Made by a program: the position numbers and the translations under genes
In this document: piece after piece, positions 17,044 to 63,210 of the stretch
How positions within the stretch are numbered: position 1 is the stretch's first letter
How the letters are laid out: each line of letters begins with the position of its first letter
DNA from: a virus
Taxonomy: Duplodnaviria; Caudoviricetes
DNA length: 64,000 nt
Direction: 5' to 3' (one strand)
IMG/VR virus record: IMGVR_UViG_3300038679_000357
Coordinates: 1 to 64,000 of that record
The notes under the pieces: model-generated
What the model was told of the DNA's origin: nothing
Database searches by the model: none
The model's input: only the letters and a program-made list of their open reading frames with translations

Positions 17044-18306
17044 AAAAATCCTACATAGAAAGAAGGATTTTGTAAAGTTTTACGGTATAAGTAATCATGA
17101 AGGTGAATAAGACATTCAAATACAGAATCTATCCAACCAAAGAACAGGCTGTTCTTTTGGCAAAGCACTTCGGAGCCAAACGCTTCATCTTCAATCATTT
17201 CCTTGATCAACGGAAGACCGCCTACCTTGAAACCAAGAAGTCACTGTCTTATTATGATAATGCTAAAAGCCTAACCGAAATGAAACACTCGGAAGAATTT
17301 GCATGGATGAAAGAAATTAACTCGCAATCTCTTCAGGCTTCGTTAAGGGACTTGGATGCTGCTTACAACCGCTTCTTCTCCAAGCAAGGTAAGTTCCCTA
17401 AGTTCAAGTCAAAGGATGATAAGCAGAGTTTCAGGATACCGCAGAATGTCTACTACGAAGACGGTCTATTGGATGTTCCGAAGTTCAAAGAGCCTATCAA
17501 GGTGGTTGAAGACCGCCCTTTGACTGGTAAGATACTTTTCGCCACTATGTCCAAGACTTCTACGGGCAAGTATTTCGTTTCGATTACCTGTGAGGCAGAG
17601 CATGTATCCTTCAAGAAGACAAAGGGGCAAATCGGAGTCGATCTCGGCTTAAAGGACTTAGCAGTTCTTTCAGACGGAACTAGATACAAGAATGTCAGAA
17701 GTACCAAAAAGCATGAAAGGAAGTTGGCACACGAACAGAGGCAGTTGAGTAAGAAGAAAAAGGGTTCTGTAAATAGAGCCAAACAGAAGATCAAAGTGGC
17801 AAGGGTTAACGAGAAGATTGCTAATTCTCGTAATGATCACATCCACAAGATCACGACAGGCATAGTTCGTGAAAACCAAACGATCTGTGTCGAGAGCCTA
17901 TCTGTGGCAAACATGATGAAAAATCATTGTCTTGCCAAAGGGATAGCCGATGTCGCATGGGGTGAAATCCTATGGCAGTTGAAGTACAAGTCGGAATGGA
18001 ACGGAAGACAGTTGTTGATTGTAGATAGGTTTTTCCCTTCCAGCAAGACCTGTAATTACTGTAAGTTCGTAAATCAAGGCTTGACCTTGGCTGATAGAAC
18101 TTGGATTTGCCCTAGATGTGGAAAAGAATTAGAAAGAGACTTGAATGCTTCGAGGAATATCTTGGAGCAGGGTCTTAACGGTCTAAACGATTTAAACTCT
18201 GGTTTCGGAACGAAGTCGGAGGATAAACAAAAACGAGGGGAGGCATTGCCAAGAGGCAAGTCAAGGAACCTCGAAACCACACCATCTTTAGTGGTGGGGT
18301 AGTTCA
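17044..18306 (+). mobile_element. IS200/IS605-family TnpB-only element
   Basis: Left-end hairpin AAAATCCT/AGGATTTT, right end GTAGTTCA, no TSD, flanks rejoin in frame. Confidence 0.85.
17097..18302 (+). CDS. tnpB: RNA-guided endonuclease TnpB
   Basis: N-terminal HTH, GVDLGLK, VESL, CNYC/CPRC Zn finger, RDLNASRNI. Confidence 0.95.
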   Translation: MKVNKTFKYRIYPTKEQAVLLAKHFGAKRFIFNHFLDQRKTAYLETKKSLSYYDNAKSLTEMKHSEEFAWMKEINSQSLQASLRDLDAAYNRFFSKQGKFPKFKSKDDKQSFRIPQNVYYEDGLLDVPKFKEPIKVVEDRPLTGKILFATMSKTSTGKYFVSITCEAEHVSFKKTKGQIGVDLGLKDLAVLSDGTRYKNVRSTKKHERKLAHEQRQLSKKKKGSVNRAKQKIKVARVNEKIANSRNDHIHKITTGIVRENQTICVESLSVANMMKNHCLAKGIADVAWGEILWQLKYKSEWNGRQLLIVDRFFPSSKTCNYCKFVNQGLTLADRTWICPRCGKELERDLNASRNILEQGLNGLNDLNSGFGTKSEDKQKRGEALPRGKSRNLETTPSLVVG

Positions 18307-18372
18307 TCTGTCGTTTTTAGTGTCATTCTAAATTGAATTTTCCATAATCCATAATACAATATCATACAAAAT

Positions 18373-18447
18373 GTTCCCGTAGCCAAGCGGTAAGGCAGAT
18401 GTCTCTAAAACATCTATGCGTGGGTTCGATCCCCATCGGGAGCGCCA
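18373..18447 (+). tRNA. amber suppressor tRNA(CTA)
   Basis: GTTCCCG/CGGGAGC, GCCAAGCGGTAAGGC, GATGT-CTCTAAA-ACATC, G73, CCA. Confidence 0.92.
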
Positions 18448-18639
18448 AAAAAATGAAACAGATTGTTGACTTTACGAAAACCTGGAATAAATTACCAACA
18501 TGAACAAATTCAATAAAATGTAGGTCTTCCCAAGCGGCTTCACATAGCTGAGGCACGCTCGTGGTCCCCCTTTGGTCCGTTTCGATCCGTATTTAACGCG
18601 ATTCTGAACGGTCAAAAACAAAACCAAAGGATTATCAAA

Positions 18640-19080
18640 ATGACCACAGAAACAATCACTACCGAAACCGTATCCACCGGTATTATCACCATCGACCGCG
18701 AATCCCATAGGAAGGCTTGTGCCTATCTCAAGGGTTTTCTCATCGGCAGGCTCCCAAAACGCCAACACCCCGCGCAGGCAAGGACTCCAGAATTCGAACA
18801 GGGATTGAAGGATTCCAGGGGCGAAACCATCGACTACTACGACGGTGTGAAGACCATCCACCTGTCAGAAGTCACGTTCGCACACATTATTCATAACCGT
18901 ATCCGTCACCGCCGTCCGCATCTCGGATCAGTGGAAAAAGATGCGGCGTTCCTCTTGGCGTTCGAGACAGTCGCCGGTACGACGAAGTGGGGAACGACGC
19001 CTGGATGGCAGATCCGCACGACCCTCAACGGGTTCGGTATCAACGTGTTGTCCATTGTCAAGGCGGGAGGTGTGGAATGA
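18640..19080 (+). CDS. hypothetical protein
   Basis: 146 aa, GC-rich, ATGA-coupled operon. Confidence 0.7.
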   Translation: MTTETITTETVSTGIITIDRESHRKACAYLKGFLIGRLPKRQHPAQARTPEFEQGLKDSRGETIDYYDGVKTIHLSEVTFAHIIHNRIRHRRPHLGSVEKDAAFLLAFETVAGTTKWGTTPGWQIRTTLNGFGINVLSIVKAGGVE

Positions 19081-19541
19081 ACCAGGGTATCACAGTCACG
19101 CTCTCGTCCGACGCCATCCGGAAGCTTATGGATGACGGTCACGAAGATGTGATCGTCGAACTCCAGAAGCACGCCGTCCAAGCTGTCGTCAATCGCTACA
19201 AGAAGCAGATAGGCGATAACCTCGACGAGGCGTTCAAATCCATACTCAGCAACCGTTACGGCATGAAGGACATCGCCAGGAAGATATTGGAGTCCTCCGA
19301 AGCCAAGACTGCGGTCGATATAATGCTTGCCGACCTCGTGGATGAAAAGTCCAACAAACTCAAACGGGAACTGTTGGAGGCGGTCGAGACCCAAAAGACG
19401 ATACTCGACAAATACGCCAGGGACGTGGAGGCGTGGACGAAGAAACTCACCAAGAAATCCGAGATCGTCCACGAGGAAGTAATCCGTAGGATAGTCAAGG
19501 AAGAGCTTCAGGCGATGTTCGCCAAGGTAGGTGCGAAATGA
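19077..19541 (+). CDS. hypothetical helical protein
   Basis: ATG at 19077 with GGAGG SD. Confidence 0.7.
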   Translation: MNQGITVTLSSDAIRKLMDDGHEDVIVELQKHAVQAVVNRYKKQIGDNLDEAFKSILSNRYGMKDIARKILESSEAKTAVDIMLADLVDEKSNKLKRELLEAVETQKTILDKYARDVEAWTKKLTKKSEIVHEEVIRRIVKEELQAMFAKVGAK

Positions 19542-19783
19542 GCAGACAGGAAACCGATCCGGCGCTGAAGGCGTTCGATAAGGTCTATTCGAAACTGGAC
19601 TTCCTCAGCCAACTGATGGAGGAGTACGCCGACGGACTCACGCCCGGAAATGTCGCGCATCACCGTGCGTGGTTCAAGGGACAGGCGCGTGAGATCCAGG
19701 AGATCTACAAGGAGTGTGCTCCCCACCTGACCACCATCGAAACAGCGCTCTGCAGGTATCGCGACGCAGGAGGTGCGAAATGA
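19538..19783 (+). CDS. hypothetical protein
   Basis: 81 aa, ATGA overlaps at both ends. Confidence 0.7.
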   Translation: MSRQETDPALKAFDKVYSKLDFLSQLMEEYADGLTPGNVAHHRAWFKGQAREIQEIYKECAPHLTTIETALCRYRDAGGAK

Positions 19784-20094
19784 GCACCGCCCTCTATATC
19801 GTCGTTGACGAGCGGCTCAACAAGAGCCAGCGCATCCCCCAGGCTGCGCATGCCGCCGCCCAATTCATTCATGAACATGGATAGGACCATGATGTGGTGA
19901 AATGGGTTTCCACCGATCGCACAATGGTATGCCTGAAGGCAAATGCTGGCGAAATCGAAGGATTTCTTAGCATGGGGTTGCGGACATCGGAGTTTATCGA
20001 CGAAGATCTCGGCAATATGAAAACCGCCATCGCGATCGGACCTTTAAGCAGAGAAGAAGGATGGAAGCTATTTAGCAACCTTTCACTGGCTTAA
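19780..20094 (+). CDS. Pth2-like peptidyl-tRNA hydrolase with in-frame TAG (19882-19884)
   Basis: GGAGG SD; LYIVV..QAAHAAAQF..HG[TAG]DHD..W..MVCLK..FIDEDLG..TAIAIGP..LSLA. Confidence 0.85.
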
Positions 20095-20100
20095 CAAAAA

Positions 20101-20129
20101 AGAGGCGGATCGCTTTTCGGTCCGCCTCT
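20101..20129. terminator. bidirectional terminator between convergent operons
   Basis: AGAGGCGGA/TCCGCCTCT flanked by A and T tracts. Confidence 0.85.
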
Positions 20130-20625
20130 ATCTTTTATAAGGATGTAGCCCAGAGAGATTCCGCACGGCAATCGTCAATCCACCAGGAGCGTAAGTTGAC
20201 GTCCATAATCCGTCGATGAAAACCTTTTTTATCGAATCTTTTTCCAACGCTCGACAGGAATCATGAATCAAAATAAGATCAGAATTCATAGCGGCAAATC
20301 GCATGGAATGTAATCTTCCATCTGACTTTCCTGCTGGTCCATCAACAAAAGCCATATCATAACAGCCACAGGCTTCATTCGGAAAGTTTGGGTAGACATA
20401 TTGCAGTAGTCTTACGTTTTTCATTTCAGGAGAAGAAACTTTATTGATCCACTCCTTTGATGTTTCCAGGCTGGTTACAAACTTCGCGTGCCTGGAAAAT
20501 AAAACTGTACTGGAACCGGAACCAATCTCCAAAATACTTTGCACGTCATATGACTTTATAACTGCAAAAATTTCACCCCATACCGACTCGCTGATTGCGC
20601 CTTTTCCAAATATTGGTTCCATCAT
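20128..20625 (-). CDS. class I SAM-dependent methyltransferase-like protein
   Basis: ILEIGSGSST, FVDGP, IHDS. Confidence 0.75.
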   Translation of the reverse strand: MMEPIFGKGAISESVWGEIFAVIKSYDVQSILEIGSGSSTVLFSRHAKFVTSLETSKEWINKVSSPEMKNVRLLQYVYPNFPNEACGCYDMAFVDGPAGKSDGRLHSMRFAAMNSDLILIHDSCRALEKDSIKKVFIDGLWTSTYAPGGLTIAVRNLSGLHPYKR

Positions 20626-29092: not shown

Positions 29093-29187
29093 TGGTCCGT
29101 CAGGTGGGACTTGAACCCACATCAACCCCTTAGCCGGGGACATCCTTACCGTGTTAAAACACGGAATTTCCATTAGACGACTGACGA
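29093..29187 (-). ncRNA. tRNA-like RNA with hairpin inserted in the D loop
   Basis: GTCTAATGG[AAATT-CCGTGT-TTTA-ACACGG]TAAGGAT; loop CGGCTAA; T arm and CCA intact. Confidence 0.75.
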
Positions 29188-45421: not shown

Positions 45422-45775
45422 TCACTCTTCTTCGTCATCGTCCTGCTCTTCATCCTCGTCTGTATCGTCCGGCGAATCACCTCCCTCATCCTCCATGAAT
45501 ACATCCATATCATCTTGAAAATCAAAGTCATCATCGTGAGAAAAATCAGTTTCAACGAGCCGTTCGAGAGCCATTCTTTCCATTTCCGAATCGGTGTTAT
45601 AGATTTTCATCGGTCTACCGGCATTATCGTAGGCATACAAACAAAAACAACCGAAAATCTCAGACAATCTTGAAGCAACATCCTTCACCATGTCAAAGGG
45701 AACAATAACTGGGGTTTCACTTGACTGATTGTCAGTATCGTATGTGACCCCTTTTTTAAGGGCATATCTGGACAT
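45422..45775 (-). CDS. hypothetical protein with acidic tail
   Basis: 117 aa, GGAGG SD. Confidence 0.7.
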   Translation of the reverse strand: MSRYALKKGVTYDTDNQSSETPVIVPFDMVKDVASRLSEIFGCFCLYAYDNAGRPMKIYNTDSEMERMALERLVETDFSHDDDFDFQDDMDVFMEDEGGDSPDDTDEDEEQDDDEEE

Positions 45776-45817: not shown

Positions 45818-46927
45818 CTAAATGTTGCCATCATGTCCCTTTTGCTTTCTTCTCAACATTTCAGCAACGCGCTCGTTAAACTTTTCCAATTTTGAATGTT
45901 TCGCAGCCTTGATGACATCGACATATTCTCCTGGCTGCATCTTCGGAATGTCAATCTTTACTGTAACAATTTGATCTCCTCGACAACACCCAGGCACAGA
46001 GGAGCCAGTTTCCAAGCCCATTCCGTTCATCCTCAAGCATGTTCCATCAAGAGTGCCAGGTGAAATGTTGATCTCAGCCGCTCCGTCAAGAGTAGGTATT
46101 TTAATGCGTCCACCGCATGCCGCTGTCGGAAAATCTATCCATAAATCACACTTAATGTTCACTCCATCAACCGAAAACAAGCCATCATCAACGGCAACGA
46201 TTTTACAATATAAATCCCCATATTTCCTACTTCTTTGGTCATAATTCCCCTCCCCCTTTGCTTCAAACAAAAGAGAGTTACCTATATGCCCATTTTTTTC
46301 AAAAAGCATAGTACGTCGGTTTTGCACGGTACCAGTGCCACTGCACTCACCGCATGTTGTTTTATTTCTAATTTTTCCATACCCATGACAATGAACACAA
46401 TTAGATCTAATCACGTTCATTGTACTGCACATTGGACATGGAACAATCGCCCCCATTGATCCCCCCAATCCATCGCAAATAGCACATTTTTTCAAAGTCG
46501 AAATCATGCAGTTAAACTTTTTCTGAGCGTAAAACTGCGTCACAGATATGAAAAATTTTACGTCCGTAGGCGGAGCATGAAGCGAAAACGGTGGTTCACT
46601 AGCATTAATTGGTGAATTATAAAAGACGTTAAATGGAGCACCCGTTGTGGTTCCCATATTGTAAAAATTACCAGCATTGCCAGCGTTAAATTTGACATAA
46701 AAATTTCTCCCATGCAACTCTCTATCGTAAGCAGTTCTTTTATTCTGATCAGAAAGGATATCGTATGCATGCGTGATTTCTTTGAACCTGGACTCAGCTT
46801 GAGCCTTGTCCGCCTCGCACTTTATTGTATCAGGATGACATTGCTTCGCAAGAACTTTGAAGGCAGCGCGAATATCGTCCGCTGTTGCGTTTTCGTTCAC
46901 GCCTAATATTTTATACAGATTTTCCAT
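45818..46927 (-). CDS. dnaJ: DnaJ chaperone
   Basis: J domain HPD, CxxCxGxG repeats, C-terminal domain. Confidence 0.9.
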   Translation of the reverse strand: MENLYKILGVNENATADDIRAAFKVLAKQCHPDTIKCEADKAQAESRFKEITHAYDILSDQNKRTAYDRELHGRNFYVKFNAGNAGNFYNMGTTTGAPFNVFYNSPINASEPPFSLHAPPTDVKFFISVTQFYAQKKFNCMISTLKKCAICDGLGGSMGAIVPCPMCSTMNVIRSNCVHCHGYGKIRNKTTCGECSGTGTVQNRRTMLFEKNGHIGNSLLFEAKGEGNYDQRSRKYGDLYCKIVAVDDGLFSVDGVNIKCDLWIDFPTAACGGRIKIPTLDGAAEINISPGTLDGTCLRMNGMGLETGSSVPGCCRGDQIVTVKIDIPKMQPGEYVDVIKAAKHSKLEKFNERVAEMLRRKQKGHDGNI

Positions 46928-62224: not shown

Positions 62225-63061
62225 CTAAAACAATGTCTTAGCCGATCCAGATTCATCGCCCTCGTCGTCATCAAGAGCTTTTCCATATTCACTCTCGGTG
62301 GCATGATCAGTTGTTTCCTCATCAAACTTCACGCCACCAGTTGTGCTGGTGCTTGCTCCGGAAGAGGAGGTGCCGTTAGCGGCAGCGACTCGGCTTGCCT
62401 TACGTGCCTTATACCAATCTCCAGAGCCAGGAATAATCTTGCTCTCAGGATCTTTAAGGTAAGCTTCGTAAAGTTCGGCGATCTCTTCGGGAGACTTCGG
62501 CTGACGAAGAACGCTGAGTGGGTTCTCCTGAATAAACTTTTCAACCCTTTCCCTTTCTTCCTTGGTCAAAGGAGTAACTTCGGCGGGAAGAAGAGTATAG
62601 CGCGTTTGCAGTTTGCCAGCTTCGCCCTTCGTAACTTTACACTGAAGAACCCAGTCGCACCCATTATCATAATCACGGGGCATCGTTCCGCCATGCATTT
62701 CCATCCACGTCATCATAGTGTCGAGATGAGTCTTGTTAAAATCCCAGGCATTGAGAATGCCATCAGCACGGTTGATAACATAGACGGTATACGATTTCTT
62801 TGGCTTGAATCCACCTTCGCGCCAGCAGATATCATTGTCCTTTCCGGGGCTGATTGCTTGAATCGGCGAGAAATAACGCCAGAATTCAATCATTTTGGAG
62901 ACAATCCGGAAACGAACAGACTGATTTTGAGCTGGCTTGATATATGGGACGCTCAAGAAGCGCCTACCGCCTTCACCGGCGTCACGCTTCTTTTGGCGAT
63001 CAACAACAACATCCCAGTCAACCTCTCCTCCGATCGGAGGACGCTTTGCAGTATCTGACAT
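62225..63061 (-). CDS. putative ssDNA-binding protein
   Basis: Aromatic-rich core, acidic tail DDDEGDE..LF, next to recA. Confidence 0.55.
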   Translation of the reverse strand: MSDTAKRPPIGGEVDWDVVVDRQKKRDAGEGGRRFLSVPYIKPAQNQSVRFRIVSKMIEFWRYFSPIQAISPGKDNDICWREGGFKPKKSYTVYVINRADGILNAWDFNKTHLDTMMTWMEMHGGTMPRDYDNGCDWVLQCKVTKGEAGKLQTRYTLLPAEVTPLTKEERERVEKFIQENPLSVLRQPKSPEEIAELYEAYLKDPESKIIPGSGDWYKARKASRVAAANGTSSSGASTSTTGGVKFDEETTDHATESEYGKALDDDEGDESGSAKTLF

Positions 63062-63210
63062 AACACTACCTCTCTTTCTTTCTTTTAATCCGCAGTTCTC
63101 GCGTAAGAATACACTATGCGGGTTTTTCTGCACCGCGACACCATATCGCAGCGCCTCACAATTAAAGATACCGTCGAAGAATTCTCATTCAATTGAAAAT
63201 GAATGAAAAA

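Follow-up and report, generated by a model that had tools for sequence, protein, structure and literature searches.

A giant (jumbo) groundwater phage that uses the standard genetic code carries what is, in our judgment, quite probably a self-contained module of stop-codon read-through, gated by a phage-encoded suppressor tRNA and by an Arg-Gly-Pro-Pro (RGPP) arrest motif in a short leader peptide. The window analyzed here is a stretch of 64,000 nucleotides of the 255-kb phage genome, and the features of the module are listed in Table 1. Because a UAG-reading tRNA adjoins an operon with three in-frame UAGs in a phage of normal code, the operon is probably limited by suppression and made only while the tRNA overrides the stop. 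The original prediction had paired the tRNA with the interrupted gene of a Pth2-like peptidyl-tRNA hydrolase at the end of the operon; the leader, with two TAGs and RGPP, was overlooked there and probably gates the whole four-gene operon. What we regard as the decisive evidence is comparative: stops and anticodon covary among relatives of the module, CUA with TAG and UUA with TAA.

Table 1. Features of the putative read-through module, with positions in the window.
Feature	Position	Strand	Basis
Promoter-like site TTGAAT-16-TACAAT, 13 nt upstream of tRNA(CUA)	18333..18360	+	consensus scan
Suppressor tRNA, anticodon CUA	18373..18447	+	ARAGORN; Rfam tRNA, 59.5 bits
Promoter-like site TTGACT-16-TAAATT; -10 box ends 6 nt before the leader ATG	18466..18493	+	consensus scan
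Leader mini-ORF with two in-frame UAGs and RGPP	18500..18607	+	read from sequence
Predicted anti-start GUGGUC (18561-18566) and anti-SD CCUUUGGU (18569-18576), within the codons of R-G-P-P-L-V	18561..18576	+	fold, duplex
Predicted sequestered ribosome-binding site ACCAAAGG (18623-18630) and start region (ATG 18640; GACCAC 18642-18647)	18623..18647	+	fold, duplex
Gene 1, 146 aa, conserved partner protein	18640..19080	+	AF2, pLDDT 83.5
Gene 2, 154 aa, start overlapping the gene 1 stop (ATGA)	19077..19541	+	ORF reading
Gene 3, 81 aa, ATGA overlaps at both ends	19538..19783	+	ORF reading
Pth2-like gene, 104 codons, TAG 19882-19884 as codon 35	19780..20094	+	Pfam PTH2
Intrinsic terminator, 12-bp stem and T run, closing the operon	20101..20129	+	sequence scan

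The suppressor tRNA is a genuine tRNA of 75 nt, the sole plus-strand tRNA among the 46 that ARAGORN detects, as had been claimed, and its Rfam score stands against a gathering score of 29. It folds into a canonical cloverleaf with G1-C72, U2-G71, G73 and an encoded CCA. Its D-arm and G73 resemble those of a tRNA for Gln, unlike G1-C72, U2-G71 and A38, which agrees with the earlier view that the inserted amino acid is uncertain. Across loci, the suppressor tRNAs are heterogeneous (discriminators G, U and A; differing acceptor stems); therefore, no common amino acid can be named. An origin as an anticodon mutant of a resident phage tRNA is ruled out by its identity of at most 72% to any of the other 45. 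A pyrrolysine system is marked by pylS/pylBCD genes and by a tRNA with a short D-loop, a 3-nt variable loop and a 6-bp anticodon stem; in the phage tRNA the D-loop has an ordinary 7 nt, the variable loop 5 nt and the anticodon stem 5 bp. Such a system, rejected on the architecture of the tRNA, is also disfavored by the relatives that pair UUA with TAA. The label 'tRNA-Pyl' given by ARAGORN is its default for any CUA anticodon.

The Pth2-like gene, preceded by GGAGG, contains a single in-frame TAG and, as originally proposed, matches the PTH2 family along its whole length when the TAG is read: the read-through product scores 24.9 bits against Pfam PTH2 (PF01981, cut-off 23 bits), residues 5-103 aligning with positions 3-114 of the 115-position profile, whereas six-frame scoring with the stop retained gives 21.5 bits, slightly below the cut-off. 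A profile of the family matches Pth2 of PDB entry 2zv3 over its full length (E 4.5e-10). The AF2 model of the read-through product (pLDDT 97.3, pTM 0.89) has Pth2 or Bit1 as all of its best 13 Foldseek matches in the PDB (TM 0.71-0.86, by query), and the archaeal and eukaryotic enzymes (2zv3, 3erj, 1wn2, 1xty and human Bit1, 1q7s) share its fold over the full length. According to the model, the gene encodes a full Pth2-fold protein only if the TAG is decoded, the fold requiring both halves of the gene, and the TAG falls in a surface loop between the helices of residues 15-33 and 37-46. K15, Q21, H24, T82 and the acidic cluster D74-E75-D76 fall on positions conserved in Pth2, although the sequences share only about 18-28% identity and the DAGxTQ loop is shortened; by analogy with the Sulfolobus enzyme, a catalytic role of such residues, and hydrolysis of peptidyl-tRNA, may be presumed. 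PTH2 genes of jumbo phages were noted by Iyer et al. in connection with ribosome rescue after tRNA cleavage (PMC7824862), a view that mentions neither a conserved in-frame stop nor a link to a suppressor tRNA. Phage Pth2-like genes, hitherto seen only as ribosome-rescue helpers, would here be tied to suppression.

The leader, of 35 codons, reads M N K F N K M-UAG-V F P S G F T-UAG-L R H A R G P P (UAGs at 18521-18523 and 18545-18547; RGPP at 18560-18571), followed by 11 further codons and TGA (18605-18607). Its mRNA is probably leaderless, to judge from the promoter-like site; near-consensus hexamers with the same 6-nt spacing from -10 box to ATG recur in L009, L020 and L035, and an AAGGAG Shine-Dalgarno sequence (SD) lies ahead of the leader ATG instead in L017, L018 and L021. 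A common layout is found in 15 distinct loci: M, 2-8 codons, stop, x-F-x-x-G-F-T, stop, 2-4 codons, R-G-P-P. The flanks of the motif vary, and its sole replacement in the 15 leaders is RAPP; across the six frames of the 255-kb genome, R[GA]PP is present at just two places. Comparison of the leaders indicates that conservation acts at the amino-acid level, Arg being encoded by CGT, CGC, CGG or AGA and Gly by all four GGN codons. Part of it could reflect a constraint on the RNA, because Pro-Pro codons of the CCUCC type are a natural anti-SD.

The RGPP-coding RNA is predicted to mask the start of gene 1. The minimum free energy fold has -42.9 kcal/mol (z -3.66; a second fold z-score was -3.0), and the duplex of the 24 nt coding for RGPP with the SD and start of gene 1 has -18.8 kcal/mol, a value that 0.05% of the remaining 24-nt windows reach. 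The corresponding 24 nt pair with the SD and the start of the gene that follows in all 13 loci tested (-10.9 to -26.1 kcal/mol, matched by only 0-3.5% of the other 24-nt windows of the same locus), and one base pair covaries, being U:A in seven rows and C:G in three. By this comparison, the predicted anti-SD pairing is conserved.

This arrangement recalls the arrest peptides ApdA, ApdP, ApcA and SecM (RAGP) and the RGPP uORFs of Streptomyces, likewise small upstream ORFs that end at or near R-[GA]-P-P (PMC7897499, PMC10951233, PMC12992588). The phage leader, too, is a short ORF with R-[AG]-P-P at or close to its C-terminal end, ahead of a gene on the same strand, and the ribosome-binding site of that gene is, by prediction, masked by RNA that a stalled ribosome would cover, as in the known cases; a ribosome stalled in the phage leader is predicted to open the masking structure. 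RGPP is the strongest RAPP-like arrest motif, tolerates many N-terminal contexts, resists EF-P and is avoided in bacterial proteomes more than any other sequence of four residues; its arrest has been demonstrated in other contexts (PMC12992588), and structures of RAPP arrest are available (PMC10951233). Known RAPP/RGPP peptides sense export or insertion, and some of them metals, by a long nascent chain with a signal peptide, whereas the phage leader peptide, of 14-35 predicted residues, has no hydrophobic segment or signal. Its input would be read-through of one or two stops by the adjacent suppressor tRNA, an extension of arrest-peptide regulation to a new kind of input. The genes that it would regulate, an orphan protein and a Pth2-like enzyme, likewise differ from those of known arrest peptides, being neither sec, yidC nor metal-homeostasis genes.

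Read-through could be real and the leader not an arrest switch, acting instead by melting of the helix as ribosomes transit (coupling) or by control of transcription or mRNA stability. Any translating ribosome would open the helix, the stall is a prediction, and in L020 and L021 the leader frame continues directly into the next gene. We nevertheless consider this account unlikely, given that the invariant RGPP/RAPP lies exactly over the anti-SD and anti-start and that the leader ORFs of L011, L033, L017 and L023 end 0-1 codon after RGPP, like those of known arrest peptides (PMC12992588).

A suppressor-gated leader with arrest is the reading that we prefer, and its read-through component can be assessed from relatives of the Pth2-like gene, searched for at the DNA level independently of gene calls. 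In 20 of the 23 loci with DNA (38-63% identity), a stop occupies the same aligned codon (14 TAG, 6 TAA; 3 sense). Downstream of it, pN is 0.31-0.41 versus a saturated pS of 0.70-0.84, dN/dS between L011 and L012 is 0.074, and the interrupted copies contain neither a frameshift nor a second stop. On this comparative evidence, the codon-35 stop is evidently old and under selection. Some family members have a sense codon at this position; therefore, the gate is dispensable.

The suppressor tRNA varies together with the stops. Of the distinct TAG-type loci, 11 extend at least about 1 kb upstream, and all 11 have a co-oriented tRNA(CUA) 0.55-2.4 kb ahead of the gene, including the syntenic 500-kb megaphage contig L032 and the 174-kb contig L033. 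The visible leader stops and the Pth2 stop are all TAG in 11 loci, all TAA in four (L035, L011, L012, L008) and mixed in none. The TAA-type lineage with a visible tRNA has anticodon UUA (L035, 68.5 bits against Rfam tRNA, and L036, from samples of two studies), the TAA/UUA pairing being seen in this one lineage in the two studies. The TAA-type loci L011 and L012 have no tRNA within 1.0-1.3 kb upstream, so adjacency of the tRNA is not obligatory. In AU tests, a single clade for all seven TAA rows was rejected (p 0.011), and one for L011, L012, L035 and L010, three of which show the leader, was not (p 0.10). Comparison thus indicates stops that are conserved, translated through and matched to the anticodon of the tRNA, and this covariation, hard to explain otherwise, argues for a read-through sensor with suppression-dependent output. 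More distantly, INPHARED gave no DNA match and, by protein, only distant homologs of the Aeromonas phage 65 type without stops; IMG/VR gave two distant loci only (by protein) and nothing in exact-pattern scans for the tRNA and leader; and GTDB genomes gave no match.

A quite improbable account is that the conserved stops are never decoded, translation terminating and reinitiating so that the gene yields two pieces, with the leader region past the stops as an untranslated anti-SD RNA and perhaps a reporter of release-factor activity. An anti-SD is inherent in the CCUCC Pro-Pro codons, RF1 recognizes UAA as well as UAG, and in the window a GTG lies four codons past the TAG of the Pth2-like gene. 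However, no in-frame restart codon is conserved (L007, L010, L012 and L013 have none nearby), and the Pth2 fold depends on strand 1 and helix 1, which belong to the N-terminal piece of 34 residues. Codon changes unneeded for pairing (AGA versus CGN, all GGN) have left the Arg and Gly of RGPP intact, and if the stops served only for termination, nothing would make them change along with the anticodon of a neighboring tRNA.

Wholesale recoding, with TAG as sense genome-wide or in a late-gene block (code 15) and the Pth2-like gene merely one of many affected, is very improbable. A suppressor tRNA(CUA) is a hallmark of code-15 phages (bioRxiv 10.1101/2021.08.26.457843; PMC9523058; PMC13037316), and code-15 crAss-like phages and Lak megaphages also read in-frame TAG, as Gln, with a phage-encoded tRNA(CUA), for which a role in regulation or timing has been proposed (bioRxiv 10.1101/2021.08.26.457843, PMC9523058, PMC6784885). 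In these phages, the late genes contain in-frame TAGs by the hundred and coding density is much higher under code 15, whereas the tiled coding density of this phage is 94.2% with the standard code versus 92.8% with TAG as sense, an order that holds in every 10-kb block. TAG terminates 48 of its 255 tiled genes (about 19%), including two in the window, 20128-20625(-) and 62225-63133(-), that the original prediction had taken as true TAG ends. Because so many phage genes end in TAG, an efficient suppressor should be costly, which counts against the suppressor-gated reading, and extensions past TAG are only marginally shorter than those past other stops (one-sided p 0.045). Neither read-through candidates nor genes preceded by the stop are more frequent for TAG than for TAA or TGA in the 255-kb genome, no Pfam domain crosses the TAG in the four best candidates, and no domain spans a TAG in the other genes. 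Thus, the internal TAGs that had been suggested as a thing to look for elsewhere in the genome did not appear as an excess, and the RF2 gene sought with them is absent, the phage genome having no release-factor gene. Code 15 is excluded for relatives of the TAA type with tRNA(UUA), and such a reassignment is not known for recoded phages. The in-frame stops of this phage are found only inside the module that neighbors the tRNA, and no suppressor target was found outside it in the 255-kb genome. The earlier proposal of conditional read-through rather than full recoding is borne out by these data, together with the conserved codon-35 stop, the upstream suppressor tRNA and the covariation.

The possibility that the TAG reflects a sequencing error or a fresh nonsense mutation, leaving the Pth2-like gene a pseudogene near an unrelated tRNA, can be dismissed as negligible: homologs called as full-length do carry sense residues (S, S, R, Q and E, at a variable position), a picture due to ascertainment, since an interrupted copy is not reported by gene callers as a full-length protein, but the stop persists at the same codon in DNA loci down to 38% identity with synonymous sites saturated, the part downstream of it is under purifying selection in copies that have no second lesion, and both an independent Logan contig (100% identical over 11.6 kb) and a contig from a second groundwater sample (covering 19594-19984 with zero differences) contain the TAG. 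An error of sequencing or assembly is ruled out by the latter two, and with the 20 loci they remove one of the cases that had been named as fatal to the original prediction; its suggested check of the residue in homologs came out divided, with sense residues in the called copies and a stop at most DNA loci.

The suppressor-gated reading entails the following course of events. The phage would make its own amber suppressor tRNA(CUA), presumably expressed, processed and charged during infection, and the downstream mini-ORF would be transcribed from its separate promoter. Without suppression, translation would terminate at the first or second leader UAG, and the unread RGPP-coding RNA would stay paired with the SD and start codon of gene 1; therefore, the operon would be translationally off. 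With an active, charged suppressor, both leader UAGs would be read and the ribosome would stall on RGPP, or at least occupy it, covering the anti-SD and anti-start and freeing the ribosome-binding site of gene 1, whereupon the four translationally coupled genes would be translated. The last of these, encoding the Pth2-fold, hydrolase-like protein, would need a third UAG to be read, at a surface loop that may tolerate any residue. Output would therefore climb steeply with suppressor activity, and the module can be viewed as a sensor or timer. It resembles trpL, hisL and pheL attenuation and the prfB UGA, in which a short leader or early codon likewise reports the activity of one translation component, but attenuators use runs of sense codons and transcription termination, and prfB a +1 frameshift that senses RF2, whereas here the stops would report the suppressor tRNA and the read-out would be SD unmasking, probably with peptide arrest.

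We favor the guess that the Pth2-like enzyme, together with its partner, exerts feedback, either on the suppressor tRNA or on peptidyl-tRNA that is arrested or has dropped off. The purpose put forward in the original prediction, peptidyl-tRNA recycling that would begin only under suppression, is hypothetical. The stronger proposal of a closed homeostat or timer, in which the suppressor switches on, through three stop gates and RGPP arrest, an enzyme that acts back on it, is tentative and rather unlikely. The Pth2-like protein, perhaps with the partner, would deacylate or hydrolyze suppressor aminoacyl- or peptidyl-tRNA or release the RGPP-arrested peptidyl-tRNA, and suppression would be held at a low set-point and used against the host or a translation-targeting defense. 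If this were true, the module would be the first genetic circuit in nature to be based on a dedicated suppressor tRNA while the genome keeps the standard code.

No published description of such a module was found. Suppressor tRNAs are common in large phages of standard code, their targets unnamed in genome papers; Xanthomonas phage XacN1, compared here by its published description, is likewise a jumbo phage with a large tRNA set, a tRNA(CUA) and a peptidyl-tRNA hydrolase gene, and its authors extended all 18 genes ending in TAG past the stop and could identify no target (PMC5852040). Unlike that account, the present locus supplies conserved candidate targets, which are internal and leader stops in a module beside the tRNA. 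The tRNA (75 nt) and the leader (about 140 nt) are small, portable parts and, if the mechanism is true, would constitute a natural orthogonal translational switch of relevance to synthetic biology and to phage control of translation.

The remaining genes of the operon, all four of which are joined by ATGA overlaps, differ in their conservation. The gene 1 partner is found in every cassette with enough sequence and contains the motifs AYLKG and H-I-x-Y-N-R-x-R-H-x-R-P-H-L-G; it has no match in Pfam, PHROG, Atlas, PDB or AFDB. Gene 2 is an optional insert that most relatives lack, and L032 has a 78-aa gene in the position of gene 3. The terminator at the end of the operon is shared with the convergent gene 20128-20625(-).

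The last gene of a four-gene operon with ATGA overlaps contains a single in-frame TAG (19882-19884, codon 35). Consistent with the original prediction that a full Pth2-like protein requires decoding of this TAG, the read-through product aligns with Pfam PTH2 along its whole length (24.9 bits, cut-off 23) and is the only PTH2 match in the phage genome. The family profile finds archaeal Pth2 structures over their full length (2zv3, E 4.5e-10), and an AlphaFold model from 45 sequences (pLDDT 97.3) has codon 35 in a surface loop between helix 15-33 and helix 37-46, its best 13 PDB matches all being Pth2 or Bit1 (TM 0.71-0.86). The gene encodes a complete Pth2-fold protein only with the TAG read. 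The Lys, Gln, His and Thr positions conserved in Pth2 are matched in the alignment, as is an acidic cluster, but the DAGxTQ loop is shortened, so that catalysis is no more than plausible. Gene 1 encodes the conserved partner protein (111-147 aa in aligned cassettes; invariant T79, H82, N86, R89, H94 and D101; predicted fold pLDDT 83.5), for which Pfam, PHROGs, PDB, AlphaFold clusters and the Atlas gave no match.

Features of the suppressor tRNA and Pth2-like operon, with AcrVA2-like genes of related loci
Feature	Position	Strand	Remark
Promoter-like site of tRNA(CUA)	18333-18360		
tRNA(CUA)	18373-18447	+	ARAGORN; Rfam tRNA model
Leader promoter-like site	18466-18493		TTGACT-16-TAAATT
Leader mini-ORF	18500-18607	+	ATG six nt past the -10 box
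Gene 1 of operon	18640-19080	+	ATGA overlap with next gene
Second gene	19077-19541	+	ATGA overlap with next gene
Third gene	19538-19783	+	ATGA overlap with next gene
Pth2-like gene	19780-20094	+	last in operon; ~1.3 kb downstream of tRNA(CUA)
Strong terminator	20101-20129		after Pth2-like gene
AcrVA2-like gene	L011:1714-2601		Pfam PF26125
AcrVA2-like gene	L033:10001-10975		Pfam PF26125
AcrVA2-like gene	L035:10001-10975		Pfam PF26125

Sequencing error is ruled out by a Logan assembly contig 100% identical to the window over 11,657 bp, TAG included, and by a contig from a second groundwater sample that covers 19594-19984 with zero differences. Protein databases give only sense residues at the aligned codon (S, S, R, Q, E), an ascertainment effect: gene callers do not list a copy with an in-frame stop as a full-length protein. 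Searching at the DNA level with conserved C-terminal peptides, followed by look-ups, yielded 23 family loci with DNA (protein identity 38-63%); at codon 35, where the original prediction had proposed to compare homologues, 20 loci have an in-frame stop (14 TAG, 6 TAA) and 3 a sense codon. Three further interrupted lineages (L032, L033, L035) came from later look-ups. No interrupted copy has a second lesion. Between interrupted copies synonymous sites are saturated (pS 0.70-0.84), non-synonymous divergence downstream of the stop is 0.31-0.41, and in one close pair of loci (L011 versus L012) dN/dS downstream of the stop is 0.074. This purifying pattern, together with the lack of second lesions, indicates in-frame translation beyond the stop and long retention of the stop itself; a recent mutation is ruled out by the selection downstream and by the sharing of the stop across diverged loci.

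A co-oriented tRNA(CUA) lies 0.55-2.4 kb upstream in all 11 distinct TAG-type loci with at least ~1 kb of upstream DNA (the window, L032, L033, L007, L009, L015, L017, L018, L020, L021 and L023). L032, on a 500-kb contig, is syntenic with the window and has the PDDEXK, metallophosphatase, lipase and tRNA-array flanks in common with it. Where both the leader mini-ORF and the Pth2-like gene are visible, their stops are all TAG in 11 loci and all TAA in four (L035, L011, L012, L008), and no locus is mixed. Two TAA-type cassettes, L035 (on a 43.6-kb contig) and L036 (from another study), were retrieved via a flanking AcrVA2-like gene and have their own tRNA, with anticodon UUA (ARAGORN; Rfam tRNA 68.5 bits), followed by a leader with TAA, TAA before RGPP, and then a Pth2-like gene whose codon 35 is TAA. 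RF1 recognises UAG and UAA alike, so that RF1 termination alone would not explain why three stops switch along with the anticodon, whereas decoding by the tRNA does. No tRNA was found within 1.0-1.3 kb upstream of L011 and L012, and in those lineages it must therefore lie elsewhere. On a weakly resolved protein tree of ~100 residues, grouping all seven TAA rows into one clade was rejected by an AU test (p 0.011), whereas a clade of L011, L012, L035 and L010 was not (p 0.10; leader visible in three of these four). The gene just downstream of the cassette in several relatives is AcrVA2-like (anti-CRISPR-related); the window has an unrelated convergent gene at this position. Directly after the tRNA(CUA) of L015, a gene (L015:3943-4539) begins ATG TTG TAG, followed by 196 open codons, and from this sequence may be a second suppression-gated gene.

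The leader, between tRNA(CUA) and gene 1, reads MNKFNKM, UAG1 (18521), VFPSGFT, UAG2 (18545) and LRHARGPP, with 11 further codons before a TGA. Fifteen distinct loci have this design (M, 2-8 codons, stop, x-F-x-x-G-F-T, stop, 2-4 codons, R-G-P-P), some with one stop instead of two, and four end 0-1 codon past RGPP; a classical AAGGAG Shine-Dalgarno precedes the leader ATG in three loci. Judged by its codons, RGPP is conserved at the peptide level: Arg is CGT, CGC, CGG or AGA, all four GGN codons serve for Gly, and the sole replacement is Gly to Ala, giving RAPP. R[GA]PP occurs only twice in the six frames of the 255-kb genome. RAPP/RGPP arrest leaders occur upstream of sec, yidC and other genes. 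RGPP is the most robust ribosome arrest sequence among RAPP-like motifs and functions in varied N-terminal contexts; EF-P does not relieve the arrest, and no four-residue sequence is avoided more strongly in bacterial proteomes (PMC12992588); structures of RAPP arrest are available (PMC10951233). UAG2 lies in the loop of a predicted hairpin (18533-18559, AGCGGCUUCAC-AUAGCU-GAGGCACGCU), also predicted in L032.

In the predicted fold of the window's leader (-42.9 kcal/mol, z -3.66), GUGGUC (18561-18566) pairs with GACCAC (18642-18647), just past the ATG of gene 1 (18640), and CCUUUGGU (18569-18576) pairs with ACCAAAGG (18623-18630), the Shine-Dalgarno region. The same fold is predicted for L032 (z -3.03). 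In 13 of 13 loci tested, a duplex of -10.9 to -26.1 kcal/mol is predicted between the 24 nt that begin at the Arg codon and the Shine-Dalgarno and start region of the next gene, and only 0-3.5% of other 24-nt windows of the same locus pair as well (at most 0.1% in nine loci). Of the cells in the start-region helix, 83% pair, versus 21-57% with the partner slid, and one pair covaries (U:A in 7 rows, C:G in 3).

Comparison among loci shows, at the level of sequence, that the stops are under selection, are read through in translation and agree with the tRNA, and that the RGPP peptide and the pairing are conserved. The stall itself, leaderless initiation, the inserted amino acid and the physiological purpose belong to inference. 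The tRNA would be made from its own promoter-like site, and the operon mRNA would probably begin at the leader ATG or close to it. With no suppression, leader translation would stop at UAG1 or UAG2, the terminating ribosome would fall short of the anti-sequences, and the anti-Shine-Dalgarno and anti-start helix would keep gene 1 closed and, through ATGA coupling, the later genes also. With suppression, ribosomes would arrive at RGPP and, with Pro codons in the P and A sites, cover both anti-sequences, freeing the Shine-Dalgarno for translation of the operon; the Pth2-like gene would then require a third read-through. Three read-throughs would make its expression approximately the third power of read-through efficiency, giving a sharp threshold or a delay.

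The virus record (255,142 bp, groundwater, single contig, 42.5% GC), of which the window is the initial 64 kb, is 97% complete by CheckV estimate; an exact copy of the 146-aa gene 1 protein (P0086) is recorded on a 340,706-bp contig, so that the phage genome may exceed the record despite this estimate. Genome recoding, to which the original prediction preferred conditional read-through, is ruled out: greedy ORF tiling covers 94.2% with the standard code versus 92.8% with TAG as sense, TAG terminates 48 of 255 tiled genes, and long in-frame continuations are no commoner after TAG than after TAA or TGA. The release factor and internal TAGs in other genes that it had proposed to seek gained no support: the phage genome has no release-factor-domain gene, genes with an in-frame TAG ahead are no more frequent than those with TAA or TGA, and none of the four best candidates has a Pfam domain across a TAG. 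In TAG-ended genes of the phage the read-through tails are slightly shorter (median 7 codons, as against 12 for TAA and 9.5 for TGA; p 0.045, one-sided), which hints weakly at tolerance of suppression. A phage-encoded DnaJ-like chaperone (45818-46927, minus strand; J domain, CXXCXGXG and C-terminal domains) ends in TAG; the next gene (45422-45775) follows 14 codons later in its frame, and none of the domains crosses this TAG.

ARAGORN placed 46 tRNAs, all inside the window, with no tRNA-Tyr call; as predicted, the only one on the plus strand has anticodon CUA (Rfam 59.5 bits). Its cloverleaf is canonical, with a 7-nt anticodon loop (CU-CUA-AA), U2-G71 and encoded CCA. Its best identity to any other phage tRNA is 72%, which excludes a recent origin from one of them by anticodon mutation. 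Its D-arm and discriminator G73 are Gln-like, yet it has G1-C72 and A38, and across loci acceptor stems differ and discriminators include G, U and A. Such heterogeneity is consistent with stops at sites that tolerate any residue. Suppressor tRNAs have been published for recoded phages (bioRxiv 10.1101/2021.08.26.457843; PMC9523058; PMC13037316), and jumbo-phage PTH2 genes have been ascribed to ribosome rescue without a link to suppressors (PMC7824862). The standard-code jumbo phages XacN1 (PMC5852040) and Atu_ph07 (PMC6102473) have suppressor tRNAs without identifiable targets, whereas here the stops of the leader and Pth2-like gene match the adjacent tRNA(CUA). Neither a stop-gated arrest leader nor a suppressor-gated Pth2 gene turned up in literature searches.

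The tRNA(CUA) genes of three relatives (L007:1319-1394, L020:319-395, L015:3816-3892) share an odd anticodon arm, in which the mismatches U30-U40 and C31-U39 reduce the stem to 3 bp and widen the loop to 11 nt (UCUUCUAAAUU), whereas that of the window is canonical. A TnpB gene of the IS200/IS605 type (17097-18302, plus strand; OrfB_IS605, Cas12f-like TNB and HTH domains) ends 70 nt upstream of the window's tRNA(CUA) and is missing at this position in L032. An unusually long (95-nt) ARAGORN call of tRNA-Val(AAC) (29093-29187, minus strand) may be a miscalled class II tRNA.
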